A stretch of 64,000 nucleotides of DNA, taken from Acidobacteriota bacterium (GTDB taxonomy: Bacteria > Acidobacteriota > UBA6911 > RPQK01 > G965248645). How positions within the stretch are numbered: the first letter of the stretch is position 1; the number at the start of each line of letters is the position of its first letter. Under the pieces are notes generated by a model, which was not told the origin of the DNA, searched no databases, and saw only the letters and a list, made by a program, of their open reading frames with translations. Below are positions 883 through 57,871 of this stretch, in pieces. The position numbers were made by a program, and so were the translations under genes. Where the stretch lies: NCBI GenBank assembly GCA_965248645.1, contig OZ252113.1, positions 2,969,325 to 3,033,324 on the forward strand, read 5' to 3'.

Positions 883-1649
883 GCTTCGTTTACAACCCCG
901 TACCATACTGTCCTTCCAGCGCTTCGCTACAACCCGATGTAAGAAATATAGACTCACCTAAGAAACGTTTAGAAAAATTCCTGAAAGAACTGAAAAATTG
1001 GGACTTAAGTACTCTTCCCAAAAAAATGTGACATACGCTGCCACTGTTCGGACATCAGCATGCCCTCTTCGAGGCACTGGATTCGTCCTCTGGGAAAGGG
1101 GCTTCTTTAGGCTGCTCTGCACCTCTACTACAGCTAGACCCAAGTACAAGACAAGCAATACTTCTCAAAACAGGGTCCGATACTTATGGTCACACGCCAC
1201 CTGATATTGCTCGCATCACGCATTCCCGCCCTTATCCTTGGTCCACCTCCTGTTCGTAACTGATTCTTAAAACAGTTTATGGACTTCAGTTGGTCTGAGA
1301 ATGGCGGCATTTCTCCGACACGGTCACCCTAGTCTCTGCTCTTCTCCTGGTCCCCAGCAGGCTGTTCACTCGGGTGCATGGCGCTTTTGTGCGGACCGTT
1401 TGGACATGCCGGAGGGAACCATGATGACCAGATGGACGGGTAAAACCATTCTTTCTATGACCGGAACACTTCGCCTATGAAACCCATTGGAGTACGCCTA
1501 CTTTTGTGCCATAATACCGCTTCAGAAACACCGCTGTCCAGGATAAACGAAAGGAGCTCGCTCAACACTTGACAAATCTCGGACTTACTGTTCAAGAGCA
1601 GATATCCGATCGGGTTTGTGTCAGGTAATCAGAGAGGAGATGGGGCTAG

Positions 1650-1931
1650 ATGAGAGCCGTTTGGAAAAATGTCACTCTTGCCGAAAGTGACCAGACCCGA
1701 ATCGTGGAAGGTAATCATTATTTTCCACCTGATTCTATCATCACGAACTATTTTCAGGTGAGTGACACCCACACTGTCTGTCCTTGGAAGGGACAGGCCA
1801 GTTATTACCACATCACGGTGCATGGAGAACGGAACGAGGATGCAGCCTGGTACTACCCAGAGCCCAAGGAGGCTGCAGACAAGATTAGGCATCAGGTTGC
1901 TTTTTGGAAGGGTGTCGAAGTAGTTCCATAA
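1650..1931 (+). CDS. DUF427 family protein
   Basis: VEGNHYFPP, HTVCPWKGQASYY and AAWYYPEPK motifs. Confidence 0.9.
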   Translation: MRAVWKNVTLAESDQTRIVEGNHYFPPDSIITNYFQVSDTHTVCPWKGQASYYHITVHGERNEDAAWYYPEPKEAADKIRHQVAFWKGVEVVP

Positions 1932-2024
1932 AGCAAAAGGTCACCCACTGAGGAAATTCCCGCTCTAGAGTACCCCTTTTACTCCTCAAAAAGAGTCCGG
2001 CAGGCTCAAGGAGGCACACTACCC

Positions 2025-2423
2025 ATGAATCCGGGAAAAATCAGTCTGGCAGCCGTCATCTGGAGCGCCTTTCTGCCTCCGGTGTCTGTCAATACAGGGC
2101 AGCCGGCCGGTGACCACCAGCCAGAGTTCAAAACGGTTTTTCTTTCAGGTGAAAAAGATTATGCCCTCATCCGAACACCTCAAATCCTAACCACGCACCA
2201 AGGAACCCTTCTGGTTTTCGCTCAGGGCCGTGAGGGCCAACACGACCAGTCAGGCAATGACATCATTATGAAGCGCAGCACCGACCAGGGTCAGAACTGG
2301 ACACCGCTGCAGGTCATTGCGGAGAACGGGGACAACAGTCTGAACTCGGTCTGCGTGCTGCAGACACGTGCCGCAACCGATCCCCCTCCTCGACCGGAAG
2401 ATGCAATGGCAAGCCCCAGATAA
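2025..2423 (+). pseudogene. Truncated sialidase/BNR-repeat protein (N-terminal fragment)
   Basis: Signal peptide, IRTP (RIP-like) and Asp-box RSTDQGQNW; ends after ~115 aa of similarity. Confidence 0.65.
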
Positions 2424-3754: not shown

Positions 3755-4074
3755 GATTTTCAGAGTCGCAACAAGCCCGTGCTGCAGAATGCAGTCCGCA
3801 GCATACTCGTGCCATGAAGGTACTGGTCCACTACCCTTTCGGCGAAGAACAGATCCAAGCATTCCGGCACCTTTCCCGCTATCACAGTGGTCATAAGCGC
3901 CACCACGTCGCTATTTTTGGAAGGACCTAGAGCCGACGGCTATAGTCGATCGTGGGACAATGGAGAACACTGGGAAAGTCTGCTTTCTGGATGTTGAGCC
4001 CGCATAGGTCGTGCCGCCCTCGCCCGAGTCACCTCAACCATAGTCTCAGTAAGCCATCGGTTGGGTCAGAGTGC

Positions 4075-10891: not shown

Positions 10892-12183
<1,292 letters not shown>

Positions 12184-12206
12184 GGGAATTATATACGATC
12201 CTAACC

Positions 12207-12248
12207 AAAAACGTCGCCCCTAGCCCTTGATTGTTTCAGGGAGGGGCG
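12207..12248 (-). terminator. Putative intrinsic terminator of the antisense ncRNA
   Basis: Hairpin CGCCCCT/AGGGGCG (12215-12248) followed on the minus strand by ACGTTTTT. Confidence 0.5.
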
Positions 12249-12263
12249 AATAGACTGTGCGAG

Positions 12264-12330
12264 TGGAGACGGAGGGATTCGAACCCTCGGCTGGCAGATT
12301 TGGAGTCCTCAGCCGCGCCAAGCCGCCCCC
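12264..12330 (-). ncRNA. D-arm-less tRNA-like RNA (Ala-type acceptor stem, CUCCAAA loop)
   Basis: GGGGGCG/CGTCTCC acceptor stem plus A73; perfect T-arm GAGGG-TTCGAAT-CCCTC; central stem with 7-nt CTCCAAA loop; no D stem. Confidence 0.7.
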
Positions 12331-12334
12331 GCAG

Positions 12335-12390
12335 AGCGGCCCCGGAATGCTTATACGACAAAGCTAATCCTGGGGCCGCTTCTCTTTTTA
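12335..12390 (+). terminator. GC-rich hairpin plus U tract in the transposase leader
   Basis: AGCGGCCCC/GGGGCCGCT followed by TCTCTTTTT. Confidence 0.55.
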
Positions 12391-12486
12391 GTCAGTGAAA
12401 ATTGCTAGGACGGGTTTGGTCGTGCCCATCTAGCAGTTTTCGGCGGGGGTTGTTTAGCGACTCCCGCCACATGAATAAACCCATCC

Positions 12487-12514
12487 ATCATATTCGCTCA
12501 CTCCGACACGTCAA
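12487..12514 (-). promoter_or_regulatory. Sigma70-like promoter pointing into the ncRNA cassette
   Basis: TTGACG-16 nt-TATGAT on the minus strand. Confidence 0.55.
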
Positions 12515-12561
12515 AAACGTCACCCCTATTGGTTAGAATAGTTCCTAAAAGGAGATTAGGA

Positions 12562-13503
12562 ATGGCTCAAAAAGCACCTGGAAAATCCCACAGAAAAGGG
12601 TTGTCGATAGTGGAGGTTATGCGGATGTTCCCCGACGATTCCACCGCCGAGAAGTGGATCGAGAAAACACGCTGGCCGAATGGGGTTGCATGCCCTCACT
12701 GTGGATCGGTGAATGTTCAAACCGGAGCCAAGCACCCGGATATGTCGTATCGTTGCCGGGATTGCCGTAAGTTCTTTTCCGTCCGCACCGGAACGGCCAT
12801 GCAGAACTCAAATCTGGGAGCTCAGATCTGGGTACTGGCCTCCTATCTTCTCTCCACGGGGATCAAAGGTACTTCCAGTATGAAGCTACACCGCGACCTC
12901 GGAATCACCCAAAAATCCGCTTGGCATCTGGCGCACCGAATCAGAGAATCCTGGACAAAGGATAAGGGACTTTTCTCAGGTCCGGTTGAAGTAGACGAAA
13001 CATACATCGGTGGCAAGGAGAAGAACAAGCGAAACTCCAAAAAGGTCAATGCCGGTCGCGGACCAGTTGGCAAAACTCCGGTGGCTGGTGCCAAGGATCG
13101 GGAAACCAACCGTGTCAGTGCCACCGTCATCCAGGGAACTACCCAGGATGAGCTAGAAGGCTTTATCCAGGATCGTGTCGAGCCCGGATCCACCGTCTAC
13201 ACAGACGATCACGGGGGTTACAATCGGCTCTGGCTGGATTTCAACCACGCCTCTGTCCGTCACAGCGTCAGGGAATTTGTGAAGGGTCAGGCCCACACCA
13301 ACGGCATTGAATCCTTCTGGGCCATGCTCAAGCGGGGCTACTACGGAACCTATCACCGCATGAGCGAGAAGCACCTGCAACGGTATGTCAATGAGTTTTC
13401 CGGTCGCCACAACATCCGCTCCCTGGATACCATCGACCAGATGGCCTCAGTAGCGAAGGGCATGGACGGGAAGCGGTTGCGGTATCGGGATCTGGTGGGG
13501 TGA
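12562..13503 (+). CDS. IS1595-family transposase
   Basis: Zn ribbon CPHC..CRDC, VEVDETY, YTDD and NGIESFWAMLKR motifs; AGGAG upstream of ATG 12562. Confidence 0.95.
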   Translation: MAQKAPGKSHRKGLSIVEVMRMFPDDSTAEKWIEKTRWPNGVACPHCGSVNVQTGAKHPDMSYRCRDCRKFFSVRTGTAMQNSNLGAQIWVLASYLLSTGIKGTSSMKLHRDLGITQKSAWHLAHRIRESWTKDKGLFSGPVEVDETYIGGKEKNKRNSKKVNAGRGPVGKTPVAGAKDRETNRVSATVIQGTTQDELEGFIQDRVEPGSTVYTDDHGGYNRLWLDFNHASVRHSVREFVKGQAHTNGIESFWAMLKRGYYGTYHRMSEKHLQRYVNEFSGRHNIRSLDTIDQMASVAKGMDGKRLRYRDLVG

Positions 13504-13513
13504 TTAGTGAGGA

Positions 13514-13720
13514 CTAGGATTCCTCGCGGAGGGCACGGTTGTCTAATGCCAGCTTTGCGTACTCGTCCGCGCTCATCCAATCACTCCCTTCCGGTATAGG
13601 AGTATCCACACGGATAGGCATAAATGGGCCTATTCTCCGGCAGATTCTCTCAAAATTCTCTGCAGCGCCCTTGAGCCTATCAAGAGGCTTAGATGCACTG
13701 AAATCCTCAAATTCCGACAT
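13514..13720 (-). CDS. Small hypothetical passenger protein (68 aa)
   Basis: GGAGGAGG RBS; overlaps the stop of the upstream protease gene. Confidence 0.55.
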   Translation of the reverse strand: MSEFEDFSASKPLDRLKGAAENFERICRRIGPFMPIRVDTPIPEGSDWMSADEYAKLALDNRALREES

Positions 13721-14585
13721 AAAATGCCTCCTCCTTACTCTCTACAGCTTTGCAGGCGTGTTGTGAAACGTAACCATCCGTCCGCGCATATAGTTCATAC
13801 ATATTTTCCCATAAAGTTTTATGAACGTCTAGGTCCTCTACCTTAAGGTCGCACCCCTTTGCTTCTGTGGCGAAAATAGGGCGACCGTGTGCCAAAGTTC
13901 CTGCTTCTGGATCTAAAAATACCTTAATCGCAGCCTTAATCTCATCGTCAGTCTTACCGTTTAGCATTCCGCTACTGAGAACCTTCACGGCTATACTATC
14001 GGCCAACGCTATTAGGGATCTGCAGGAATTGATCTCTCGGTCGTCATAATTGGCGAGCTGCTGGATATACGGCTCTAGGTGGCCGGTCGCAACAACGGCT
14101 TCCTTGAAAAGGCGATCATACCCTTGGACTAGTCCATACGCAGAGAAGCCACGCCGGACCCCATTCTCTTCTTTGATTATCTGTGGGTCTACTGGCCCTA
14201 GTTCCGAGGAGACGGCCATTAGGATCTTTGACGCTCCCATGCAAATTATGGTCGCAGCCGACTTCGCCTTACCCGGAACGATTGCCAAATAGTCTCCTGT
14301 GCCACTGTAGGAGCGGCACGTATTTACGATTCTCTCCGCAGCGAGTCCGTCTCCCCCGGGCGATGAAAGCATCAGCGCTAAGCCGTTAGATAAGTCTAGG
14401 CCCTGCAAGACGCTTTGAAGCATGTTGCAGTCAGCGTCGCTTATCGAGGCGAGGTGTTTGAAGCTCGTAAAGAAGGTAACGAGTGCGCGCCCTTCCAGGT
14501 GCTTTTCTACCGCAGAGAAGAGTTGCTTTCTGGTCTCTGGTGTTTGGCTCTGCTCGCCAAAAACCGTCTTATAGACATTTTTCAT
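13707..14585 (-). CDS. ClpP/crotonase-fold serine protease (SDH_sah/S49-like) passenger
   Basis: SPGGD, AKSAAT, ELGPVDPQ and HGRPI motifs. Confidence 0.85.
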   Translation of the reverse strand: MKNVYKTVFGEQSQTPETRKQLFSAVEKHLEGRALVTFFTSFKHLASISDADCNMLQSVLQGLDLSNGLALMLSSPGGDGLAAERIVNTCRSYSGTGDYLAIVPGKAKSAATIICMGASKILMAVSSELGPVDPQIIKEENGVRRGFSAYGLVQGYDRLFKEAVVATGHLEPYIQQLANYDDREINSCRSLIALADSIAVKVLSSGMLNGKTDDEIKAAIKVFLDPEAGTLAHGRPIFATEAKGCDLKVEDLDVHKTLWENMYELYARTDGYVSQHACKAVESKEEAFYVGI

Positions 14586-14743
14586 CCGTCCAGCCTAATC
14601 AGATTTCGCTGCCCCCCTCTGAGACACTACCCCAGAATGTACTTACAGAGGAGTTTGCCTCATGGGTTGTCTAACTTAGGGATAAGGGTGTCAAGCCCTA
14701 TTCTATGGTTGACGCTGAGGCTGTTCGGGGCTAGTATCTGAGC

Positions 14744-14914
14744 ATGGATTCTGACACGATGAAGGAAAAGGAACCGAAGGAGAATCCGAAACGAGGCCGA
14801 CCAGTCAAGCGGTCGATGCCAGAACCCATCCCAGACACGCCCGAGAACATCATGCGGTCGATCCTGAACACCCCACCTAAGAAGCGCGACGAATGGGCCT
14901 ACCTCAAGGACTAG
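14744..14914 (+). CDS. Small hypothetical passenger protein (56 aa, GRP..PEPIPDTPENI), possibly leaderless
   Basis: Hand-translated ORF; TTGACG-17-TAGTAT promoter ends ~6 nt before the ATG. Confidence 0.55.
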   Translation: MDSDTMKEKEPKENPKRGRPVKRSMPEPIPDTPENIMRSILNTPPKKRDEWAYLKD

Positions 14915-14988
14915 CCATAAATGGCTGCTCCCTACCTTGCTCTGGGGAGTGGCGTGGTCAATAGTAGAGGGAGCTAGTGCGGTAGGGA

Positions 14989-15240
14989 TCAGTCACGATT
15001 CTTAGTTAAGAATTCGTGGCCATTCCACGTCAGATTAAAAATTTCATAAGCAGGAGCCTGATCCAATCCCAAACTATGCCTATTAACGTGAAGGAACCCC
15101 GCCTAACTACACAGCCCAATGTGGTAATGAATCTGGACCTCTGAAAATTCTTCAAAGCTGGGAGCCCTTAAAGAAGACCCGTCTGCCTTTTCCTTAGCGT
15201 AGCGAAGAATCATAAAAATCAGCCTCATTTCTCGATTCAT
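14989..15240 (-). pseudogene. DUF2513-like winged-helix passenger with an in-frame TAG
   Basis: MNREMRLIFMILRY..HYHIGLCS*AGF..LTWNGHEFL; TAG at 15103-15105. Confidence 0.65.
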
Positions 15241-15360
15241 GGGAAACATTGTAACAGATTGGAAGGGTTCGCCATGCTACGCCAGATCTACATCTTTGAC
15301 AATCCAAATTATATCAAACCGACCACCCGTCCCGTTTGGTTAGGATCGTATATAATTCCC

Positions 15361-31949: not shown

Positions 31950-33217
31950 TGACCTGCCCCCACGAACGAGTCCACCCTCTAAGTTAGACTCGGAGCCATT
32001 TGAAGTGCCCTGCACGGGATAGAACTGAACTCCTGAGACCTAGGTAGTTTGGCCTCTGGTGCCGGCGGCCGATAGGCCAAGGCGCTGTGAGGCCGGATCT
32101 GATTGTAATCCCTTCGCCAGCGTTCTACCAACACCTTGGCTTCCCCAAGCGTGTCGAAGATCTCCATGTTCAGCAGCTCATCCCGTAGTTTCCCGTTGAA
32201 ACTCTCAATGTACCCATTCTCCCAGGGGCTGCCCGGCTCGATGTACAAGGTCCTTACCCCAACAGCCTGCAGCCAGTCCCGGACCGCCTGTGCCGTAAAC
32301 TCTGATCCGTTATCGGACCGGATAAACTCAGGCACTCCCCGATCAACGAATAACTCCGCCAACCGGTCCAACACGTCTTGGTGATTCATCTGCCGTTTCA
32401 CATCAATGGCGAGGCACTCTCTGGTGTACTCATCCAGGATCGTCAATAGCCGAAAGGCTCGCCCATCATGGGTCCGTTCATGCACGAAATCATAGCTCCA
32501 GACGTGGTTTTTGCGAGCCGCTCGTAACCGAACACAGGAACCGTCATTAAGCCACAGTCGACTTCGTTTCGGCTGTCTGGACGGGACTTTCAGCCCTTCT
32601 TGTCTCCACAGCCTCTCCACCCGCTTAGGATTCACCTTCCACCCTTCCCCATGAAGTATCGCCGTGACCCGCCGGTAGCCATAACGCCCGTATTGCGTAG
32701 CCAACTCCACCATCCGGGCCACCAATCGGGCCTCATCATCGGGAATTTGCCTTTCCCTTCGCTGGGTCGATCGAACCTGTCCCAGCACTTGGCAGGCCCG
32801 ACGTTCGGAGACTCGCTCTGCTCCTAATCGCTCTCGTACCCACATCACCGCCCGTCTCCTGTTCGCCGGGCCTAGAAGTTTCCCGAGGACACTTCCTTCA
32901 GGATCTGCTTGTCCAAAGACAGATCCGCCACCAGCTTCTTCAACCGGGTATTCTCCTTCTCCAACACCTTCAACCTATTGGCCTGGTCCAACCGGAGCCC
33001 TCCATACTCTTTGCGCCACCGGTAGTAGGTCTGCTCGCTCACCCCCATCTGCTTCGACACCTGTCCCACCCTCTGTCCTTGGGCCAGACCCACCTCTGCC
33101 TCACGCAGCTTCATGATGATCTGTTCTGCCCTAAATCGCTTCCCTACCATCTCTTGCCTCCTTCCTAAAACCGAAATCCTAACATTCAAACTGGACTCGT
33201 TTTAGGGGGCAAGGGCA
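31950..33217 (-). mobile_element. IS3-family element, copy 1 (orfA 32872-33150, orfB ending 31979)
   Basis: TG..CA TIRs, GGGAAAC frameshift window, WSYDF/RSDNG/ESFNG DDE motifs; near-identical copy at 48587. Confidence 0.95.
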
Positions 33218-42830: not shown

Positions 42831-43166
42831 TAGTGGTCTCCTTTCGCTTTGACTATGATCAGCATCGGTAAGGTTAACTAGGCTGTCAACAGGGTAGCCC
42901 TCCATGGTTGACCTCCCAGCCCTAGATGCCCTTTAACTGCTCTTTGCTCCACCTCGAGGTTTGTCCCACTTTCTCTGACGAGGAACAAAGTAATAGCGGC
43001 AGCGAAAGGCTCACGAAACCGGGGTTTGACTTGGGCGATGCGTTTGGCCGGTACTTGACGTCGTTGCCGTGAACTCCAGAACCATTAAAAAATCATTAAA
43101 AAACGTGCTTTTTTGGCCGTCCTTCTCGACAAAAATATCTCTTTAACTTGTTGATTTAAGGTGGTT

Positions 43167-43241
43167 CGCGCCCGGCAGGATTCGAACCTGCGGCCTTTGG
43201 TTCCGGAGACCAACGCTCTATCCAAACTGAGCTACGGGCGC
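43167..43241 (-). tRNA. tRNA-Arg(CCG)
   Basis: GCGCCCGTAGCTCAG..CT-CCG-GA..GGTTCGAATCC..CGGGCGC cloverleaf. Confidence 0.95.
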
Positions 43242-43280
43242 ACAAGTCCATCTTACAACACTTTGAGCAGAATCACCGAC

Positions 43281-43800: not shown

Positions 43801-44355
43801 TTACTTGAGTTTGAACTCTAGGGCTAGCCTTTGAGCCTCAGCGATCTGTTCCCGAGTCATCACCTTAGCTACAAGATCTCGTGAATTGATGGCCCTTACT
43901 CTTGCGTCTCCAGTTAAGTTAGCAGATGCCAAGTTGTACCACATGTGAGCCTGTGCGTAGTCCTGAGGGACTCCTTTACCGTCGCGGTACATGTACCCCA
44001 GGCGAGATTGGGCATAGGCTAAACCTTGATCAGCAGCCTTGCGGGTCCACTTGAATGCTTCTTGGTAGTTCTGAGGAACCCCTTTGCCCTTGTCGTACAT
44101 GTACCCCAGGAGATATTGGGCCCCGGCATCACCTTGCTCAGCTGCCTTGCGGTACCACTTGGCTGCTTCTTGGTTGTCCCGAGAAACACCGTAGCCCTCG
44201 TCGTACATTAACCCCAGCTCAAATTGAGCCTCGGCATCACCTCGTTCGGCCGCCAGCAACAATTCTTTGAGACGGTCGATTTGTGAATAACCGCCAGACC
44301 CAAAGATCACCAGAGCAAGAGAAAAGAAGAGCAGTTCGCGTATGGTGTGCTTCAT
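43801..44355 (-). CDS. Sel1-repeat secreted protein
   Basis: Three AQ..LG.MY..G.GV repeats and a signal peptide. Confidence 0.92.
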   Translation of the reverse strand: MKHTIRELLFFSLALVIFGSGGYSQIDRLKELLLAAERGDAEAQFELGLMYDEGYGVSRDNQEAAKWYRKAAEQGDAGAQYLLGYMYDKGKGVPQNYQEAFKWTRKAADQGLAYAQSRLGYMYRDGKGVPQDYAQAHMWYNLASANLTGDARVRAINSRDLVAKVMTREQIAEAQRLALEFKLK

Positions 44356-48586: not shown

Positions 48587-49853
48587 TGACCTTGCCCCCT
48601 AAAACGAGTCCAGTTTGAATGTTAGGATTTCCGGTTTAGGAAGGAGGCAAGGATGGCAGGGAAGCGGTTTAGGGCAGAACAGATCATCATGAAGCTGCGT
48701 GAGGCAGAGGTGGGTCTGGCCCAAGGACAGAGGGTGGGACAGGTGTCGAAGCAGATGGGGGTGAGCGAGCAGACCTACTACCGGTGGCGCAAAGAGTACG
48801 GAGGGCTCCGGTTGGACCAGGCCAAGAGGTTGAAGGTGTTGGAGAAGGAGAATACCCGGTTGAAGAAGCTGGTGGCGGATCTGTCTTTGGACAAGCAGAT
48901 CCTGAAGGAAGTGTCCTCGGGAAACTTCTAGGCCCGGCGAACAGGAGACGAGCGGTGATGTGGGTACGAGAGCGATTAGGAGCAGAGCGAGTCTCCGAAC
49001 GTCGGGCCTGCCAAGTGCTGGGACAGGTTCGATCGACCCAGCGAAGGGAAAGGCAAATTCCCGATGATGAGGCCCGATTGGTGGCCCGGATGGTGGAGTT
49101 GGCTACGCAATACGGGCGTTATGGCTACCGGCGGGTCACGGCGATACTTCATGGGGAAGGGTGGAAGGTGAATCCTAAGCGGGTGGAGAGGCTGTGGAGA
49201 CAAGAAGGGCTGAAAGTCCCGTCCAGACAGCCGAAACGAAGGAGACTGTGGCTTAATGACGGTTCCTGTGTTCGGTTACGAGCGGCTCGCAAAAACCACG
49301 TCTGGAGCTATGATTTCGTGCATGAACGGACCCATGATGGGCGAGCCTTTCGGCTATTGACGATCCTGGATGAGTACACCAGAGAGTGCCTCGCCATTGA
49401 TGTGAAACGGCAGATGAATCACCAAGACGTGTTGGACCGGTTGGCGGAGTTACTCGTTGATCGGGGAGTGCCTGAGTTTATCCGGTCCGATAACGGATCA
49501 GAGTTTACGGCACAGGCGGTCCGGGACTGGCTGCAGGCTGTTGGGGTAAGGACCTTGTACATCGAGCCGGGCAGCCCCTGGGAGAATGGGTACATTGAGA
49601 GTTTCAACGGGAAACTACGGGATGAGCTGCTGAACATGGAGATCTTCGACACGCTTGGGGAAGCCAAGGTGTTGGTAGAACGCTGGCGAAGGGATTACAA
49701 TCAGATCCGGCCTCACAGCGCCTTGGCCTATCGGCCGCCGGCACCAGAGGCCAAACTACCTAGGTCTCAGGAGTTCAGTTCTATCCCGTGCAGGGCACTT
49801 CAAATGGCTCCGAGTCAACATTAGAGGGTGGACTCGTTCGTGGGGGCAGGTCA
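48587..49853 (+). mobile_element. IS3-family element, copy 2 (orfA 48653-48931, orfB to 49824)
   Basis: TGACC..GGTCA TIRs; near-identical to 31950-33217 in inverted orientation. Confidence 0.95.
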
Positions 49854-50320: not shown

Positions 50321-50443
50321 CATCCGACACCTCCCCAGGCCGCGAAATCTCCCCTAAATAATAGGGAATTATATACGATCCTAACCAAAAACGTCGCCCC
50401 TAGCCCTTGATTGTTTCAGGGAGGGGCGAATAGACTGTGCGAG

Positions 50444-50510
50444 TGGAGACGGAGGGATTCGAACCCTCGGCTGGCAGATTTGGAGTCCTCAGCCGCGCCA
50501 AGCCGCCCCC
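50444..50510 (-). ncRNA. D-arm-less tRNA-like RNA, copy 2
   Basis: Identical to 12264-12330. Confidence 0.7.
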
Positions 50511-50741
50511 GCAGAGCGGCCCCGGAATGCTTATACGACAAAGCTAATCCTGGGGCCGCTTCTCTTTTTAGTCAGTGAAAATTGCTAGGACGGGTTTGGT
50601 CGTGCCCATCTAGCAGTTTTCGGCGGGGGTTGTTTAGCGACTCCCGCCACATGAATAAACCCATCCATCATATTCGCTCACTCCGACACGTCAAAAACGT
50701 CACCCCTATTGGTTAGAATAGTTCCTAAAAGGAGATTAGGA

Positions 50742-51683
50742 ATGGCTCAAAAAGCACCTGGAAAATCCCACAGAAAAGGGTTGTCGATAGTGGAGGTTAT
50801 GCGGATGTTCCCCGACGATTCCACCGCCGAGAAGTGGATCGAGAAAACACGCTGGCCGAATGGGGTTGCATGCCCTCACTGTGGATCGGTGAATGTTCAA
50901 ACCGGAGCCAAGCACCCGGATATGTCGTATCGTTGCCGGGATTGCCGTAAGTTCTTTTCCGTCCGCACCGGAACGGCCATGCAGAACTCAAATCTGGGAG
51001 CTCAGATCTGGGTACTGGCCTCCTATCTTCTCTCCACGGGGATCAAAGGTACTTCCAGTATGAAGCTACACCGCGACCTCGGAATCACCCAAAAATCCGC
51101 TTGGCATCTGGCGCACCGAATCAGAGAATCCTGGACAAAGGATAAGGGACTTTTCTCAGGTCCGGTTGAAGTAGACGAAACATACATCGGTGGCAAGGAG
51201 AAGAACAAGCGAAACTCCAAAAAGGTCAATGCCGGTCGCGGACCAGTTGGCAAAACTCCGGTGGCTGGTGCCAAGGATCGGGAAACCAACCGTGTCAGTG
51301 CCACCGTCATCCAGGGAACTACCCAGGATGAGCTAGAAGGCTTTATCCAGGATCGTGTCGAGCCCGGATCCACCGTCTACACAGACGATCACGGGGGTTA
51401 CAATCGGCTCTGGCTGGATTTCAACCACGCCTCTGTCCGTCACAGCGTCAGGGAATTTGTGAAGGGTCAGGCCCACACCAACGGCATTGAATCCTTCTGG
51501 GCCATGCTCAAGCGGGGCTACTACGGAACCTATCACCGCATGAGCGAGAAGCACCTGCAACGGTATGTCAATGAGTTTTCCGGTCGCCACAACATCCGCT
51601 CCCTGGATACCATCGACCAGATGGCCTCAGTAGCGAAGGGCATGGACGGGAAGCGGTTGCGGTATCGGGATCTGGTGGGGTGA
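50742..51683 (+). CDS. IS1595-family transposase, copy 2
   Basis: Same translation as 12562-13503. Confidence 0.95.
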   Translation: MAQKAPGKSHRKGLSIVEVMRMFPDDSTAEKWIEKTRWPNGVACPHCGSVNVQTGAKHPDMSYRCRDCRKFFSVRTGTAMQNSNLGAQIWVLASYLLSTGIKGTSSMKLHRDLGITQKSAWHLAHRIRESWTKDKGLFSGPVEVDETYIGGKEKNKRNSKKVNAGRGPVGKTPVAGAKDRETNRVSATVIQGTTQDELEGFIQDRVEPGSTVYTDDHGGYNRLWLDFNHASVRHSVREFVKGQAHTNGIESFWAMLKRGYYGTYHRMSEKHLQRYVNEFSGRHNIRSLDTIDQMASVAKGMDGKRLRYRDLVG

Positions 51684-51886
51684 TTAGTGAGGACTAGGAT
51701 TCCTCGCGGAGGGCACGGTTGTCTAATGCCAGCTTTGCGTACTCGTCCGCGCTCATCCAATCACTCCCTTCCGGTATAGGAGTATCCACACGGATAGGCA
51801 TAAATGGGCCTATTCTCCGGCAGATTCTCTCAAAATTCTCTGCAGCGCCCTTGAGCCTATCAAGAGGCTTAGATGCACTGAAATCC

Positions 51887-52765
51887 TCAAATTCCGACAT
51901 AAAATGCCTCCTCCTTACTCTCTACAGCTTTGCAGGCGTGTTGTGAAACGTAACCATCCGTCCGCGCATATAGTTCATACATATTTTCCCATAAAGTTTT
52001 ATGAACGTCTAGGTCCTCTACCTTAAGGTCGCACCCCTTTGCTTCTGTGGCGAAAATAGGGCGACCGTGTGCCAAAGTTCCTGCTTCTGGATCTAAAAAT
52101 ACCTTAATCGCAGCCTTAATCTCATCGTCAGTCTTACCGTTTAGCATTCCGCTACTGAGAACCTTCACGGCTATACTATCGGCCAACGCTATTAGGGATC
52201 TGCAGGAATTGATCTCTCGGTCGTCATAATTGGCGAGCTGCTGGATATACGGCTCTAGGTGGCCGGTCGCAACAACGGCTTCCTTGAAAAGGCGATCATA
52301 CCCTTGGACTAGTCCATACGCAGAGAAGCCACGCCGGACCCCATTCTCTTCTTTGATTATCTGTGGGTCTACTGGCCCTAGTTCCGAGGAGACGGCCATT
52401 AGGATCTTTGACGCTCCCATGCAAATTATGGTCGCAGCCGACTTCGCCTTACCCGGAACGATTGCCAAATAGTCTCCTGTGCCACTGTAGGAGCGGCACG
52501 TATTTACGATTCTCTCCGCAGCGAGTCCGTCTCCCCCGGGCGATGAAAGCATCAGCGCTAAGCCGTTAGATAAGTCTAGGCCCTGCAAGACGCTTTGAAG
52601 CATGTTGCAGTCAGCGTCGCTTATCGAGGCGAGGTGTTTGAAGCTCGTAAAGAAGGTAACGAGTGCGCGCCCTTCCAGGTGCTTTTCTACCGCAGAGAAG
52701 AGTTGCTTTCTGGTCTCTGGTGTTTGGCTCTGCTCGCCAAAAACCGTCTTATAGACATTTTTCAT
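51887..52765 (-). CDS. ClpP-fold serine protease passenger, copy 2
   Basis: Same translation as 13707-14585. Confidence 0.85.
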   Translation of the reverse strand: MKNVYKTVFGEQSQTPETRKQLFSAVEKHLEGRALVTFFTSFKHLASISDADCNMLQSVLQGLDLSNGLALMLSSPGGDGLAAERIVNTCRSYSGTGDYLAIVPGKAKSAATIICMGASKILMAVSSELGPVDPQIIKEENGVRRGFSAYGLVQGYDRLFKEAVVATGHLEPYIQQLANYDDREINSCRSLIALADSIAVKVLSSGMLNGKTDDEIKAAIKVFLDPEAGTLAHGRPIFATEAKGCDLKVEDLDVHKTLWENMYELYARTDGYVSQHACKAVESKEEAFYVGI

Positions 52766-54360
52766 CCGTCCAGCCTAATCAGATTTCGCTGCCCCCCTCT
52801 GAGACACTACCCCAGAATGTACTTACAGAGGAGTTTGCCTCATGGGTTGTCTAACTTAGGGATAAGGGTGTCAAGCCCTATTCTATGGTTGACGCTGAGG
52901 CTGTTCGGGGCTAGTATCTGAGCATGGATTCTGACACGATGAAGGAAAAGGAACCGAAGGAGAATCCGAAACGAGGCCGACCAGTCAAGCGGTCGATGCC
53001 AGAACCCATCCCAGACACGCCCGAGAACATCATGCGGTCGATCCTGAACACCCCACCTAAGAAGCGCGACGAATGGGCCTACCTCAAGAACTAGCCATAA
53101 ATGGCTGCTCCCTACCTTGCTCTGGGGAGTGGCGTGGTCAATAGTAGAGGGAGCTAGTGCGGTAGGGATCAGTCACGATTCTTAGTTAAGAATTCGTGGC
53201 CATTCCACGTCAGATTAAAAATTTCATAAGCAGGAGCCTGATCCAATCCCAAACTATGCCTATTAACGTGAAGGAACCCCGCCTAACTACACAGCCCAAT
53301 GTGGTAATGAATCTGGACCTCTGAAAATTCTTCAAAGCTGGGAGCCCTTAAAGAAGACCCGTCTGCCTTTTCCTTAGCGTAGCGAAGAATCATAAAAATC
53401 AGCCTCATTTCTCGATTCATGGGAAACATTGTAACAGATTGGAAGGGTTCGCCATGCTACGCCAGATCTACATCTTTGACAATCCAAATTATATCAAACC
53501 GACCACCCGTCCCGTTTGGTTAGGATCGTATATAATTCCCATAAGAAACGGGTTTGGGCTTTTTCGAGACCAGACTATCACATTCCGATTGCCGAATCTG
53601 AAGCCAAACAGGACTAGAAACCGTATAAAATATTTCTTTCTCCTGGGTCCTATATACGAAGGCGACGGGGGTGAGGGGTTGGGATAACCTGGACTGACTT
53701 CCATGAGTTCTCTCAGTCTGTTAACGACATGAGTTTTCGAGTGTGATAATAGCTTTATCTAGATTGCTGCAGCCTGTTCCCTCAAATGAGCTGTTCGCCC
53801 GAAGAACATGACCCCGCAGGGGAGCATCGAGTGTGATCAGTTCCATGTAGGGGTATCGCATAAGAATGGATAATGTCTGCTAAAACATGGTCTGTTCATT
53901 TTTTATCGCGGTTTCCAACTAAGCTCTAGAAAACGAACTGATTTCCAGGCCTATTCCAAGTCAGCATCCGGGAGAGGAGAATTGACCTGGTTGAGCTTCT
54001 CTACTTGGCTGAGGTCTATGATAAGCTGCTTGAGTACTTTTTCCTACTGAGCTAAGAGTATAGGGCGGATTGACTTCGCGATAATCCTTCAGCCAGGTGC
54101 TCTCGTAGACCAACCCGCGGCTCACGTCTTGCACACTCAGTGTGGTAAACCTGTGAATCGGGCTGAGGATCGGCCACCCAACTATCTGAGCTAGCAAAAC
54201 TTCTACCTCTTTGCACTGAAGGAGTGCATCGGCTCACACCCTCACTCCCTCCTTAACTGCACTACGGTTCCGCTGACGGGTCCCAACCGCGCGACCCATA
54301 TTAAGCCAACCTGCCCAGTCGACAGCTTTGGGGTTAGCTCCGGTTTCCGTAGCGTACACG

Positions 54361-55953
54361 TCAGACTCCCTCCTTTGGGGAGTAGTTGAGGATAGAGGGA
54401 TAAGAACCATACTCCACGATAACTTCCACATCTTCGACCCGGAGAGGACTCACCAAACCTGCGGCCCTTCCATCCAGCACAAACTCCAGCAGGTTCTGGC
54501 CCCGGCGGGGACGCACCTTGCGCAAATAAAACTCCAGCCACTGACCATTATAGGGAGCGATAGGTGAGCCATAATCGCGCAGACAGGTCTCCTCGGCCAA
54601 GGACTTCCCATTGAGCAAGATCCTCAGCCGGTCGGCCGAGACCAAATCGGTAATGTTGATTCGTAGCCGCACTTGGCGGATGCGCTCGGCAGTCCCTTCG
54701 ATGTCGTCGGCGATGCGGAAAGCGATCTTGTGCGTGCTCCGGTCCGAGGCGGCGATCTCCAGCGGCAAGGAGGTCGGGTAGCCGACCAGTCCGGCGATCT
54801 TGAGGCTTCGCTTGACCAAATAGTGTTTGTCGGCTTCCCGAACTAGATCCGGGTCGCCCAGCTCCGAGAGAATCCGGCGGGCAGTATCCCCCAGCGGCCA
54901 CCGAAGAAACCAGCCGTACATACCATCGGCCCCTAGGGCCCAGTAGTTGGCCACTGCCGCGCGTATCATCTCCGGCGTTGCCCACTCTTGCGTGTGGAGT
55001 TCACGCTCCGCGCTGTGATGATAGGGCTGGATCATGGCGTAGACTGAGGTCTCGCCCTGGTGAGCAGCCTCGATCAGCCAGTCGATGGGCATCTGGCTAT
55101 CCACTAGCATGTAGCCATAGACCATGGGGACCACATAGTCGAGTAAGCCCTCGGCGAACCAGCTACGCACATCCAGACCACACTTACGGTTGAGGGCCTC
55201 GGTAGGATAGACCCGAGCTCCCACCTGACCCGGTTTTCCTGGCCGGTTACGCACCATTTCCGAGACTTTCCTGATCCATTGGGTCATCACCGGTGTATAG
55301 GCTTCGACGTCTTCCTCTCTGAAGTAATAGGAGGCGCCATAGGGCGGGGCGGCCAGGTCCAGCTCAACCCCTTCGGTTGGATAGTCCTTGGCCAGTTCCT
55401 CCAGTACCGCAAACTGATGGTCCCGTACCTCGGGATGAACGAAACCCCGCCCCCCCGACTTGAGCTGGTGGGCCGGATCCATACCCCCATAGCTGCCCAG
55501 ACGCAAACTGGCAAAGAAGTCCATGCCTTTCTCGTGGGCCCGGTCGATCAAGACCGTCAGCGGATCTAGACCCTGGTCGATCAAACTCTGCATGTTGTGC
55601 CAGGCTCGCCAGTAGGCCGCCTTCGGGAAGGCGGTTGCATCCCCTCCATACTTGAAGCGTTTGCCCACCTTTGAGGGATAAAAGAGACCGTCTCCTCGCG
55701 CCACCCCGTAGGTGAAAGTATCTACAGCGGTCCCCGCTACTTCATCGACGGGACGCCAGGCATCCTCCATCTTCATGGGTGGCTCGAAGACGTACAGATA
55801 GTAGTGGCGGGCATCATTGAAATAGATCGTCCGCCGTTTCCGGGTGGCTGAACTCTCCCTTCTGGGGTTGGCCACTGCCTTTTCCCCCTTGAGCTTTAAA
55901 GCGGCTGCCGTGACAGCTGTTCCTTGTATGAATCTTCTTCGTGTCATGCCCAT
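54361..55953 (-). CDS. Tat-exported GHL10/DUF187-like TIM-barrel protein
   Basis: TRRRFIQG signal; YFND, DFFASLR and EGVELD motifs. Confidence 0.7.
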   Translation of the reverse strand: MGMTRRRFIQGTAVTAAALKLKGEKAVANPRRESSATRKRRTIYFNDARHYYLYVFEPPMKMEDAWRPVDEVAGTAVDTFTYGVARGDGLFYPSKVGKRFKYGGDATAFPKAAYWRAWHNMQSLIDQGLDPLTVLIDRAHEKGMDFFASLRLGSYGGMDPAHQLKSGGRGFVHPEVRDHQFAVLEELAKDYPTEGVELDLAAPPYGASYYFREEDVEAYTPVMTQWIRKVSEMVRNRPGKPGQVGARVYPTEALNRKCGLDVRSWFAEGLLDYVVPMVYGYMLVDSQMPIDWLIEAAHQGETSVYAMIQPYHHSAERELHTQEWATPEMIRAAVANYWALGADGMYGWFLRWPLGDTARRILSELGDPDLVREADKHYLVKRSLKIAGLVGYPTSLPLEIAASDRSTHKIAFRIADDIEGTAERIRQVRLRINITDLVSADRLRILLNGKSLAEETCLRDYGSPIAPYNGQWLEFYLRKVRPRRGQNLLEFVLDGRAAGLVSPLRVEDVEVIVEYGSYPSILNYSPKEGV

Positions 55954-56042: not shown

Positions 56043-57647
56043 TCATTCGTATCTCGTCAAGGGAACCAACTCCGGCATGGACACTGACTGCGAGACTACT
56101 GATCCGTAGTTTACCCAGATTTCCACGTTTTCAACGGATATGCCCCCTTGAAGTCCGCGGGGTCGGTGGTCCAGCGAGATCTCCAACAGGTTCTGACCCT
56201 TGCGAGGCCGCACCTGCTTGAGTTGAAATTCCAACCATTGACCCCGATAGGGGCCAAACTGCTCGCCAAAATCCCGCAGACAGGTTTCTTGCTCGAGGGA
56301 GTTTCCATTCAAGCGCAGCGTGAGTCGGTCGGCGCTGACCAGGTTGTAAATGTTGAGCTTGAGCTGGATCTTCCGTATGCGATCAGATGACCCCTCGATG
56401 TCGTCTGCGATGAAAAAGGGGATTGAGTAGCGTTGTTTAGCGTCCGCAGACGGGATCTCAATGGGCAAAGCAGCATAGTATCCCATCTCATCTGCAATTT
56501 TCGACCTGCGTCGCAAAACGTAGTGCTTGTTGCCCTCTTTGATGAGCTCCCGGTCCCCTAGTTCAGTCAAGGTACGGCGCTGGGCGTCTCCCAGAGGCCA
56601 TCGCATGAACTGGGTGTAAAGTCCATCCACTCCTCGGAACCAATGGTTTGCCGCAGCTGCCCGCGTGATTTCCGGAGTGGCATACATTCGGATCGGAGCA
56701 CCAGTGACCTCGGTTCTCACGTAGGGCTGAAGTATCCCATAGACAGCGGTGTCGACCTCATGAGCCGCTTGGATGAGCCAGTCGATTGGCATATTGGGGT
56801 CGAGCGTAAAGTCCATGTACAGCATTGGCAGCACATAATCGAGGAGGCCTTCCCTGAGCCAGGTGCGAACGTCAAGACCGCGCTCAAGACAGGTCTGCTC
56901 GGTGGGATAGACTCGTACGCCGATCGCGCCGGAGCCACCCGGCCGACGGCGCACCATCTGGGAGATCTTTCTTACGTAGTCGGTCAATACTGGCGTGTAT
57001 TCGGCGACGTCTTCCTCACGGAGGGAGAATGACATCCCACCTGGAGCCGCGGCAAAGTCGAGCTCCACTCCTTCGATGTCATAGCGGGTGGCAAGTTCCT
57101 CTAGTACCGCAAACTGATGGTCGCGGACCTCAGTGTGGGCCAGACCCCTGCCCCCCGACTTGAGCTGGTGGGCCGGGTCCATACCCTCGTAGCTGCTCAT
57201 TCGCAAGCTGGCGAAGAAATCCATGCCCTTTGTGTGAGCCCGGTCAATGAGCACGGTGAGTGGATCGAGGCCTCGATCGATTAGACTCTGCATGTTCTCC
57301 CACGCCCGCCAGAAGGCCGCCAATCGGAAGGCGGTTGCATGCTCTTCGTACTTAAAACGCTTGCCAACCTTTGAGGGGTAAAAGAGCCCTCCGCTAGCCA
57401 CTCCGTAGATGAAAGTGTCCACCGCAGTACCCGCCACTTCATCGACGGGACGCCAGACATCCTCCAACTTCATGGGTGGCTCGAAGACGTACATATAGTA
57501 GTGGCGGGCATCATTGAAGTAGAGGGTTCTGTGCCTTCGCTTAGTGGGCTCTTTCTCTGAAGGATGAGTTGACGTTCCCCCCAGGACTGTTGTCCCAGCT
57601 GAGGAGCTAGTCATCCCACTCATGAACGATCGTCGCGTCATTCCCAT
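56043..57647 (-). CDS. Tat-exported GHL10/DUF187-like protein, tandem paralog
   Basis: TRRSFMSG signal; long stretches identical to 54361-55953. Confidence 0.7.
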   Translation of the reverse strand: MGMTRRSFMSGMTSSSAGTTVLGGTSTHPSEKEPTKRRHRTLYFNDARHYYMYVFEPPMKLEDVWRPVDEVAGTAVDTFIYGVASGGLFYPSKVGKRFKYEEHATAFRLAAFWRAWENMQSLIDRGLDPLTVLIDRAHTKGMDFFASLRMSSYEGMDPAHQLKSGGRGLAHTEVRDHQFAVLEELATRYDIEGVELDFAAAPGGMSFSLREEDVAEYTPVLTDYVRKISQMVRRRPGGSGAIGVRVYPTEQTCLERGLDVRTWLREGLLDYVLPMLYMDFTLDPNMPIDWLIQAAHEVDTAVYGILQPYVRTEVTGAPIRMYATPEITRAAAANHWFRGVDGLYTQFMRWPLGDAQRRTLTELGDRELIKEGNKHYVLRRRSKIADEMGYYAALPIEIPSADAKQRYSIPFFIADDIEGSSDRIRKIQLKLNIYNLVSADRLTLRLNGNSLEQETCLRDFGEQFGPYRGQWLEFQLKQVRPRKGQNLLEISLDHRPRGLQGGISVENVEIWVNYGSVVSQSVSMPELVPLTRYE

Positions 57648-57783: not shown

Positions 57784-57871
57784 TGGTGCGAAAGGGGGGA
57801 CTCGAACCCCCACGGGCTCATCACCCACCAGATCCTAAGTCTGGCGCGTCTGCCAATTCCGCCACTTTCGC
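57784..57871 (-). tRNA. tRNA-Leu(TAG)
   Basis: GCGAAAGTGGCGGAATTGGCAGACGC..CT-TAG-GA; long variable arm; encoded CCA. Confidence 0.95.

Follow-up and report, generated by a model that had tools for sequence, protein, structure and literature searches.

An IS1595-family transposon of Acidobacteriota carries a conserved gene for a D-stem-less tRNA-like RNA with alanine identity elements

Introduction

Transfer RNAs (tRNAs) whose anticodon does not match the identity of their body are described from Acidobacteria by Mukai et al. (Nucleic Acids Res 2017; PMC5389517), who report irregular tRNAs with mismatched anticodons in this phylum, some of them possibly linked to transposable elements, and the insertion of alanine at UAG in E. 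coli by acidobacterial allo-tRNAs with a G3:U70 pair. In this work we studied a 64,000-nt stretch (the window) of the chromosome of an Acidobacteriota bacterium (GenBank assembly GCA_965248645.1, contig OZ252113.1, positions 2,969,325 to 3,033,324), in which an IS1595-family transposon harbours a 67-nt tRNA-like RNA on the minus strand of positions 12264-12330. This RNA resembles the allo-tRNAs of PMC5389517 in its phylum, its non-canonical body and the mismatch between anticodon and identity, and some allo-tRNAs share its G3:U70 pair. On the other hand, allo-tRNAs combine an 8/4 or 9/3 acceptor/T branch with a complete D arm and a long variable arm, whereas the RNA described here has a 7/5 branch, no variable region and a 2-bp D remnant. 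Judged from its sequence, it is a new structural form (7/5, no variable region, rebuilt D stem, 67 nt, IS1595 cassette) of the irregular, identity-mismatched tRNAs of Acidobacteria, and it may be a mobile modifier of the reading of the genetic code.

A first reading of the locus, made from the sequence only, had considered it to be without precedent. This claim was too strong, since irregular, G3:U70-bearing and transposable-element-linked tRNAs of Acidobacteria are in print (PMC5389517). The parts of that paper drawn on here mention neither IS1595 elements nor the cassette, and its supplementary figures S5 and S6 may show related RNAs. In our literature search, which covered papers without their supplements, no report of a tRNA-like RNA in IS1595 elements came up.

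Several other systems share part of the features of this RNA. It has in common with tRNA-Ala(CGC) the T arm, A73 and an acceptor containing G3:U70, with the 3' 28 nt being identical to the 3' end of tRNA-Ala(CGC) from a genome of the same order (L093) and close to that of the host; by contrast, positions 8-48 are replaced by 35 nt, and the triplet is CCA or CUA instead of NGC. With the tRNA-like domain of tmRNA (RF00023) it shares the alanine identity, the lack of a D stem, the GG loop and a helix abutting the T arm. However, it has no tag reading frame or pseudoknots and is 67 nt long, whereas the host's own tmRNA, found by ARAGORN elsewhere in the genome, has 358 nt.

Mitochondrial tRNAs lacking the D arm (tRNA-Ser(AGY), nematode tRNAs; described in the part of PMC7609411 drawn on here) have the D arm replaced by a short connector and keep acceptor and anticodon, as is the case here, whereas our RNA lies in a transposon on a bacterial chromosome, with a canonical T arm and a long central helix in place of a flexible connector. 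The same source describes mt-tRNA-Ala(UAG) of Ashbya and mt-tRNA(CCU) of Sphaeropleales as tRNAs of alanine identity that reassign codons in organelles; like the RNA in the window, they combine G3:U70 and A73 with a foreign anticodon, and because of this combination alanyl-tRNA synthetase (AlaRS) puts alanine at a non-alanine codon. These organellar tRNAs are canonical cloverleaves with fixed reassignments, in contrast to the irregular body and mobile gene of our RNA, whose host retains a tRNA-Trp of its own. A further comparison is offered by RNA-OUT of the insertion sequence (IS) IS10, a plain stem-loop that pairs with the start region of the transposase gene (tnp). It is likewise a small structured RNA at an IS end and opposite to tnp, whereas the RNA studied here is tRNA-shaped, bears the identity elements for a synthetase and is not notably complementary to the start of tnp.

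Copies, fold and detection of the tRNA-like RNA

The minus strand of 12264-12330 reads exactly as the 67 nt quoted in the sequence-only reading, and the second copy announced there was exact as well: it lies at 50444-50510 (minus strand), within the second copy of the transposon, against 0 matches in 100 shuffles. A third identical copy is located outside the window in the same single-contig genome of 3.75 Mb (G000).

The same fold was obtained from the minimum free energy (MFE) structure of the single sequence and from RNAalifold on four homologues, and in both the proposed 7-bp acceptor, 5-bp T arm, D replacement of about 9 nt with a GG and extended central stem were recovered. All parts are on the minus strand. 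The acceptor is formed by 12324-12330 (5' strand) and 12265-12271 (3' strand) and consists of G1-C66, G2-C65, G3.U64, G4-C63, G5.U62, C6-G61 and G7-C60, numbered along the RNA; the discriminator A is at 12264, followed by CUC and not by CCA. The D arm is replaced by the 9-nt GCUUGGCGC (12315-12323), a mini D hairpin of 2 bp (GC-UUGGC-GC) that keeps GG in its loop. The central arm (12289-12314), GGCUG-A-GGA/CUCCAAA/UCU-GC-CAGCC, carries the 7-nt loop at 12299-12305, with CCA at 12301-12303, and it is followed by the T arm GAGGG/UUCGAAU/CCCUC (12272-12288), with zero nt between central arm and T stem, so that the branch is 7/5. The RNA thus has the 7-bp acceptor, the 5-bp T stem, the UUCRANY T loop and the 7-nt anticodon loop with U33 and R37 of a tRNA, and it lacks the cloverleaf with a D arm that defines a canonical one.

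This arrangement suggests how the missing D stem is compensated. The former 3' strand of the D arm would pair with the former variable-loop strand, substituting for the usual D stem: positions 17-20 would run on into the anticodon-like stem and pair with 39-42, and the T stem would follow directly. The result would be one continuous central arm with about nine stacked layers, compared with roughly ten (anticodon stem, 26-44 pair and D stem) in a normal tRNA. In addition, the GG of the mini hairpin could dock on the intact T loop.

Standard finders do not report the RNA. ARAGORN in bacterial mode, relaxed score included, made no call at its position and found three ordinary tRNAs in the window, and Rfam at gathering thresholds gave only the same three tRNAs, with no RF00005 match at the RNA. 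Consequently, the possibility raised by the earlier reading that it belongs to an existing Rfam family was not borne out, no family reaching its gathering score there. The best permissive match was tmRNA (RF00023; 31.2 bits vs a gathering score of 47), in an alignment limited to the acceptor and T arm in which 328 internal model positions are replaced by 28 nt. The next was mascRNA-menRNA (RF01684; 30.1 bits vs 42.5), whose likeness is one of shape only because the family is from vertebrates. ARAGORN in mitochondrial mode reported a D-reduced tRNA-Trp(cca) with a shifted acceptor register.

Conservation of the RNA among homologues

A covariance model of the RNA was used to search 80 loci that encode related transposases, and only two strong matches were found, L011 (85.7 bits) and L009 (84.4 bits). 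These two loci, judged by their coordinates, sit in the Acidobacteriota genomes G024 and G014, respectively. In the order-wide search (76 genomes), the RNA was present in four, which belong to four different families of a single Acidobacteriota order: G000 with three copies, and G012, G014 and G024 with one each. The 72 genomes without the RNA include G070.

The four homologous RNAs vary at 15 of the 67 positions, and RNAalifold finds a hairpin 5' of the RNA together with the tRNA-like fold unaided, with 96.1% of the cells pairing in the resulting structure. Both partners have changed in eight pairs, a count that compares with 0-1 in slid controls and is reached by one of 500 shuffles. Five of these changes are in the 5' hairpin and three within the RNA: G012 has U-A for G-C at pair 7-66 of the acceptor, and G014 has altered the T-stem pairs 49-65 and 50-64. 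In both helices the G.U pairs are found on the minus strand, an indication that this is the functional strand.

The RNA is better conserved than its surroundings in two of the three comparisons with the window copy. In G024 it differs at 4/67 positions (6%), with 25% difference in the 5' hairpin, 46% in the leader, 0% in the trailer and 57% in the terminator; in G012 it differs at 6/67 (9%), and the corresponding values are 50%, 55%, 38% and 81%. A divergent contig showed the same contrast, with 14 changes in 12213-12247 and one in 12248-12410; a 411-nt contig variant of the locus, with 7 differences, was present in run X3. The pattern is reversed in G014 (L092:1501-1567), the nearest element, with a transposase 95% identical and flanks 97% identical: its RNA differs at 10/67 positions (15%), whereas its flanks differ at 7 of 212 columns (hairpin 2%, leader 3%, trailer 0%, terminator 7%). 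Its ten changes comprise four paired T-stem swaps, five in loops or junctions and one conversion of G5.U68 to G-C, and no helix is broken. This may reflect either fast evolution under structural constraint or the recombination of a diverged allele into the element.

Altogether, the comparison of homologues shows that the 67 nt form a selectively maintained gene for what is predicted to be a tRNA-shaped small RNA. The view that this is neither a decayed tRNA nor the remnant of an attachment (att) site was thereby upheld, given that the fold is kept through both-sided changes, G3:U70 and A73 are invariant and the RNA of the two distant homologues exceeds its flanks in conservation.

No further homologue was found by pattern scans of metagenomes and a viral scan, and blastn with the cassette against plasmids and phages gave no match. 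A phylum-wide pattern search allowing 2 mismatches was discarded, as its counts resembled those of a reversed-pattern control; the high count that it gave for G012 was not borne out by the covariance model, which found one copy there, and genomes G098 and G217 enter only this discarded search.

Alanine identity and origin

The set formed by G1-C72, G2-C71, G3:U70, G4-C69 and A73, which the sequence-only reading had identified as that of AlaRS, is invariant in the four homologues, and the RNA has the sequence features that define tRNA-Ala identity (G3:U70 in a 7-bp acceptor, A73 and G2:C71). Comparison with tRNA-Ala(CGC) shows that its acceptor stem and T arm are, as far as their letters tell, tRNA-Ala's own, and the identity over the 3' 28 nt indicates that the RNA is a remodelled tRNA-Ala. 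The earlier proposal of a mimic rather than a decayed tRNA thus stood as regards decay and needs correction as regards origin, which lies in a tRNA-Ala. The acceptor of three homologues, GGGGGCG/CGCCUCC, is also that of the host tmRNA; in G012 it has U7-A66.

The inner 35 nt have no comparable source among the host tRNAs. Aligned with the interiors of the host tRNAs, they reached a best score of 1.5, with a shuffled maximum of 1.6 +/- 2.0, and a simple deletion derivative of a host tRNA was rejected because this alignment is no better than that of shuffles. Neither the deletion derivative of tRNA-Trp nor the att fragment that had been named as possible refutations is upheld. The tie for best interior includes tRNA-Trp (GC-TTGGC-GCG plus the CUCCAAA loop), a coincidence that is suggestive and not significant.

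The loop itself, CUCCAAA, equals that of the host tRNA-Trp in the window copy, as had been noticed, and it keeps C32, U33, A37 and A38. The description as a Trp-like CCA loop holds for two of the homologues (G000 and G024), whereas the other two (G014 and G012) carry CUA, the amber-reading triplet; this middle triplet base, C in two and U in two, is the only loop change among the four. In view of the flank relationships, the switch of the triplet needs two changes, or one plus recombination.

The statement that CCA is not encoded was correct, since CUC follows the discriminator, and it does not set the RNA apart. According to the ends reported by ARAGORN, CCA terminates 37 of the 47 host tRNAs; of the remaining ten, six or more are clearly without it, and in three or four the ends appear to be shifted. 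A homologue of the CCA-adding enzyme is encoded in the genome (PF01743, 130 bits).

The small-RNA cassette

The RNA is contained in a small-RNA cassette of ~306 nt (12209-12514, minus strand) located between the left inverted repeat of the transposon and the transposase gene. Most related IS have only 55-110 nt between left end and tnp, and L010, with a transposase 83% identical, has unrelated DNA in this slot. Contigs from three public runs (X7, X8 and X10) join 12208 straight to 12515 and correspond to IS copies without the cassette; because the sides of the joint are short (25 nt), they are attributed to relatives and not to the strain of the window. The cassette is bounded by a direct repeat, CAAAAACGTCNCCCCTA (12206-12223, plus strand), whose partner at 12512-12529 is 17/18 identical. 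This repeat is perfect in L009, the only other cargo-bearing IS in which cassette-flanking repeats were found.

Within the cassette, a promoter-like site (TTGACG-16-TATGAT, 12487-12514, minus strand) lies about 157 nt upstream of the RNA; it has 10/12 matches, with 0.5 such sites expected in the region, and a TAnnnT hexamer occupies the aligned place in all four homologues in an alignment read by eye. The conserved 5' hairpin revealed by RNAalifold (46 nt, 12335-12380, minus strand) ends 4 nt before G1, with fold z values of -3.9 on the minus strand and -3.8 on the plus strand. A U-run comes after the hairpin when it is read on the plus strand, a configuration that could stop read-in transcription. 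Downstream of the RNA there is a 16-nt trailer, CUCGCACAGUCUAUUC (12248-12263, minus strand), identical in three of the four homologues and with AGUCUA in all of them, and then a terminator-like hairpin followed by ACGUUUUUGG (12204-12249, minus strand; -23.8 kcal/mol, z = -2.6), at which a consensus scan gave no call. The order of these elements, from promoter-like site through 5' hairpin, RNA and trailer to terminator-like hairpin, shows the cassette to be a self-contained minus-strand module.

In G012 the unit of hairpin plus RNA is found directly past the stop codon of the transposase gene (L090:1233-1301 and 1584-2531), and a duplicate of the final ~23 transposase codons flanks it. This placement implies that the unit has moved between two positions within the IS lineage.

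tRNA cargo in related elements

tRNA or tRNA-like cargo is present in 10 of the 80 related IS1595 loci, about one in eight. Inverted-repeat ends, a few of them perhaps spurious, were found in 56 of the 80. The cargo lies inside the inverted repeats, in the same slot as in the window or in a nearby one, and the elements that bear it span several phyla; seven of the eight cargo tRNA genes called by ARAGORN are antisense to tnp.

Besides L009 and L011, which hold the homologues of the 67-nt RNA, L027 and L028 have just after tnp (3982-4056, minus strand) a 72-nt RNA with G3:U70, A73, a compact D hairpin, a long arm, no variable loop and UUG. L051 (2730-2894, minus strand) encodes a 'Pro(agg)' with G3:U70 and A73, together with a 'Ser(gct)' that lacks the long arm and has C33. 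The same slot contains a 95-nt 8/4 'Leu(gag)' in L048 (2796-2890, minus strand) and a 'Phe(gaa)' in L045 (2806-2881, minus strand). As for the remaining cases, L020 (4791-4885, minus strand) has a 95-nt species with UAU and a variable arm of 10 bp, L013 (4793-4868, plus strand) a species with an 8-bp acceptor stem and L032 (4126-4208, minus strand) a partial tRNA match. Thus G3:U70 and A73 accompany a non-alanine anticodon (UUG, AGG) in two other cargo RNAs of IS1595 elements, and G3:U70 with a foreign anticodon recurs on three different scaffolds. These findings agree with those of Mukai et al. (PMC5389517) and widen them, and the frequency of about one in eight would provide a genomic home for the irregular tRNAs whose possible link to transposable elements those authors left open.

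Further tRNA-likes with G3:U70 and A73 were observed in G010 (a tandem pair) and G039 (a single copy), with central hairpins that are not anticodon-like; they adjoin apparent IS1-type transposases, identified by eye, and a conserved open reading frame (ORF) of 142-150 aa. Tracts of this kind are L095:1413-1573 (minus strand), with ORFs at 425-1357 and 1637-2065 (both minus), and L100:1501-1567 (minus strand), with ORFs at 3-614 and 1010-1462 (both minus).

Possible function and alternative explanations

We tentatively favour, at something short of an even chance, the explanation that this is a selected, alanine-chargeable, D-stem-less tRNA-like cargo gene whose product acts as a weak alanine-inserting suppressor. 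RNase P, which recognises the acceptor/T helix and the elbow, would cut at G1, and the 3' end would be trimmed and provided with CCA by the host enzyme; the missing CCA would be no obstacle, because host tRNAs also lack it and a PF01743 enzyme is present. AlaRS, which needs only a G3:U70 acceptor helix, would charge alanine via G3:U70 and A73 regardless of the triplet. EF-Tu, which binds the acceptor/T helix, would find that of tRNA-Ala intact. In the least certain step, the ribosome would accept the RNA as an inefficient suppressor that inserts alanine; UAG would be read by the CUA forms and UGG, perhaps also UGA, by the CCA form. An action of the CCA form on UGA might be expected by analogy, since D-arm mutations of tRNA-Trp (the Hirsh suppressor) reportedly let CCA read UGA, and tryptophanyl-tRNA synthetase might also charge the CCA form in part through its anticodon. 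In favour of decoding are the hallmarks of the loop, the length of the arm, the triplet base as the sole variable base of the loop, the recurrence of G3:U70 with foreign anticodons and the precedent in E. coli.

Several observations weigh against this explanation. The public sequencing runs that hold the locus include no RNA run, and the analysis of reads was one of contigs only. Three copies of a decoder that turns Trp codons into Ala should be harmful to the host, and no gene in the elements needs read-through when TGA is translated as alanine in the window or TAG in L009. In the window, translation with TGA as alanine made ORFs only trivially longer. In L009, the joining of a 158-aa and an 81-aa ORF by TAG as alanine was rejected as a recoded gene, as they look like two genes: the 81-aa ORF has its own ATG after a purine-rich spacer coding for Gly and Glu, a possible Shine-Dalgarno sequence read from the translation, and its weak DUF3467 match begins at profile position 24. 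D-arm-less tRNAs are described only from mitochondria in the part of PMC7609411 drawn on here, and no bacterial D-stem-less elongator tRNA was found in the literature searched. As regards the fold, its stability of -28.4 kcal/mol is unremarkable (z = -0.68; 44 of 200 shuffles equally stable); the central arm shows no both-sided pair change, with seven of its eight pairs invariant and one broken in G024, which also has a U.C mismatch at acceptor pair 5-68; and the covariation statistics are weak because only four related sequences exist. Finally, the IS-borne L095, L114 and L100 share acceptor, mini D and T arm only and have no clear 7-nt anticodon loop, which suggests that the common role need not involve decoding.

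In a rather unlikely alternative, the RNA would be processed and alanylated and would act like the tRNA-like domain of tmRNA without decoding. Counted jointly with it are its variants: a competitor for SmpB or stalled ribosomes, an alanine donor for a transferase, or a decoy for tRNA nucleases, with the central hairpin serving for spacing or specificity. The overall architecture, in which an acceptor is joined to a GG loop that has no D stem and a helix adjoins the T arm with no variable loop in between, speaks for it, as we take this to be the layout of the tRNA-like domain of tmRNA with its helix 2, and so do tmRNA being the best Rfam match (31.2 bits, acceptor and T arm aligned around a deletion), the acceptor shared by three homologues with the host tmRNA, and the retention of G3:U70, A73, mini D and T arm in L095, L114 and L100 next to unrelated central hairpins. 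However, the match is under the gathering score and ARAGORN calls no tmRNA at the RNA, the 7-nt loop has all hallmarks of an anticodon loop and equals that of the host tRNA-Trp, the 3' 28 nt are those of tRNA-Ala and not of tmRNA, and a decoy for a tRNA-Trp-specific nuclease is not expected to switch to CUA. Control of the transposase in cis, with an RNA antisense to any tnp mRNA whose start lies at the left end or beyond it, a plus-strand hairpin that ends read-in and a tRNA shape that gives only RNase P processing and stability, appears improbable. It would account for the position of the RNA opposite to tnp in all four hosts and of seven of the eight ARAGORN-called cargo genes antisense to tnp, for the plus-strand hairpin followed by UUCUCUUUUU (z = -3.8) and for the invariant AGTCTA (TAGACT on the plus strand) just 3' of the RNA. 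It would leave aside why G3:U70, A73 and an anticodon-type loop are conserved, which neither processing nor stability needs; moreover, the G012 cassette lies past the tnp stop codon and not in the leader, most related IS have no cassette, and the plus-strand promoter is an 8/12 match by eye with no call in the scan. Trans-antisense pairing of the central arm with the start region of tnp was rejected, the value against the ribosome-binding region (-15.8 kcal/mol) being no better than that of shuffles (mean -17.7 kcal/mol).

A neutral relic, left by an IS that captured a tRNA-Ala beside its insertion site and eroding without function, is the least probable of these explanations and a quite remote one. 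The 3' 28 nt shared with tRNA-Ala(CGC), the normal tRNA genes next to related IS (a tRNA-Pro is 18 nt away from L028, with a similar case at L071), the dispensability of the cassette, as seen in cassette-free related IS, and the ordinary stability of the fold are compatible with erosion. Against it, the RNA diverges by 6-9% where flanks diverge by 25-81% (G024, G012), three pairs within it are changed on both sides while the alanine identity set is invariant, the 10/67 changes between G000 and G014 break no helix, and a promoter-like site and a terminator-like hairpin belong to the cassette itself.

The favoured explanation, an alanine-inserting suppressor, can be extended to a broader claim that we regard as unlikely, namely that IS1595 and IS1-like transposons of this Acidobacteriota order spread minimal AlaRS-chargeable tRNAs, with the D stem rebuilt from the variable-loop strand, that work on the ribosome and insert alanine at UAG, UGG or UGA. 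If true, no earlier D-stem-less elongator tRNA would be on record from bacteria, and these RNAs would also be mobile modifiers of the genetic code; since AlaRS ignores the anticodon, their triplet could change freely between CCA and CUA. Should the RNA be both charged and able to decode, an IS of a common type could take a small code change (alanine at amber or Trp codons) from genome to genome, and the bacterial ribosome would tolerate a continuous central helix in place of the D stem of a tRNA, which bears on the structure-function rules of tRNA and on how orthogonal tRNAs are designed. Even without decoding, it would still be a rare tRNA mimic that bears synthetase identity under selection inside transposons.

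The carrier transposon and its surroundings

The element that carries the cassette is 3177 bp long (12184-15360, plus strand), as delimited by offset comparison of the repeat. It is present in three copies in the genome: copy 2 is at 50364-53540 (offset +38180, 1 mismatch in 3177), and copy 3 is outside the window. Its left terminal inverted repeat of 26 bp, GGGAATTATATACGATCCTAACCAAA (12184-12209, plus strand), has its partner at 15335-15360, and ends with GGGAATTATA... recur in related elements. A perfect 8-bp target duplication, TAAAAAAA, flanks copy 3, and none was seen at copies 1 and 2. The transposase gene (12529-13503, plus strand) matches the Pfam families DDE_Tnp_IS1595 (145.9 bits) and Zn_ribbon_IS1595 (39.7 bits), both above cut-offs; its true start is likely the ATG at 12563, located behind the Shine-Dalgarno sequence AAAGGAG, since homologues match from about residue 12. 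The DDE transposase with a zinc ribbon, the inverted repeats and the 8-bp target duplication place the element in the IS1595 family.

Two further ORFs accompany the transposase gene. A passenger of 292 aa (13707-14585, minus strand), with a weak match to ClpP-like SDH-protease (Pfam, 40.8 bits; cut-off 31.3), is absent from the other RNA-bearing elements, which hold different passengers; PADLOC found no defence system among the passenger proteins. Near the right end, a small basic ORF of 56 aa (14744-14914, plus strand) without a Pfam family match is kept in L009 (5349-5525, plus strand), with 56-58 aa and an RGRPVKR motif, whereas other passengers differ between elements.

Copy 1 interrupts a PSCyt2/DUF1549 gene, cut at 12183. 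Copies 1 and 2 are in direct orientation, 38 kb apart, and their outer flanks (AAAAGAAA / ATAAGAAA) match at 7 of 8 bases. A composite transposon made of both copies was considered and is not supported, because the interrupted gene does not resume past copy 2. Between the two copies there is a 1202-nt inverted repeat, 99% complementary, with arms at 31950-33151 and 48652-49853, 15.5 kb apart and each adjoined by an extra 65-nt arm; it is probably another pair of IS.

Elsewhere in the window, three tandem 108-nt units of 60-74% identity (43939-44262) lie just downstream of tRNA-Arg(ccg) (43166-43242). In addition, diverged direct repeats at 55198-55826 and 56898-57523, spaced about 1700 nt, with 70% identity over 300 nt and 89% over 135 nt, were observed near tRNA-Leu(tag) (57784-57871).

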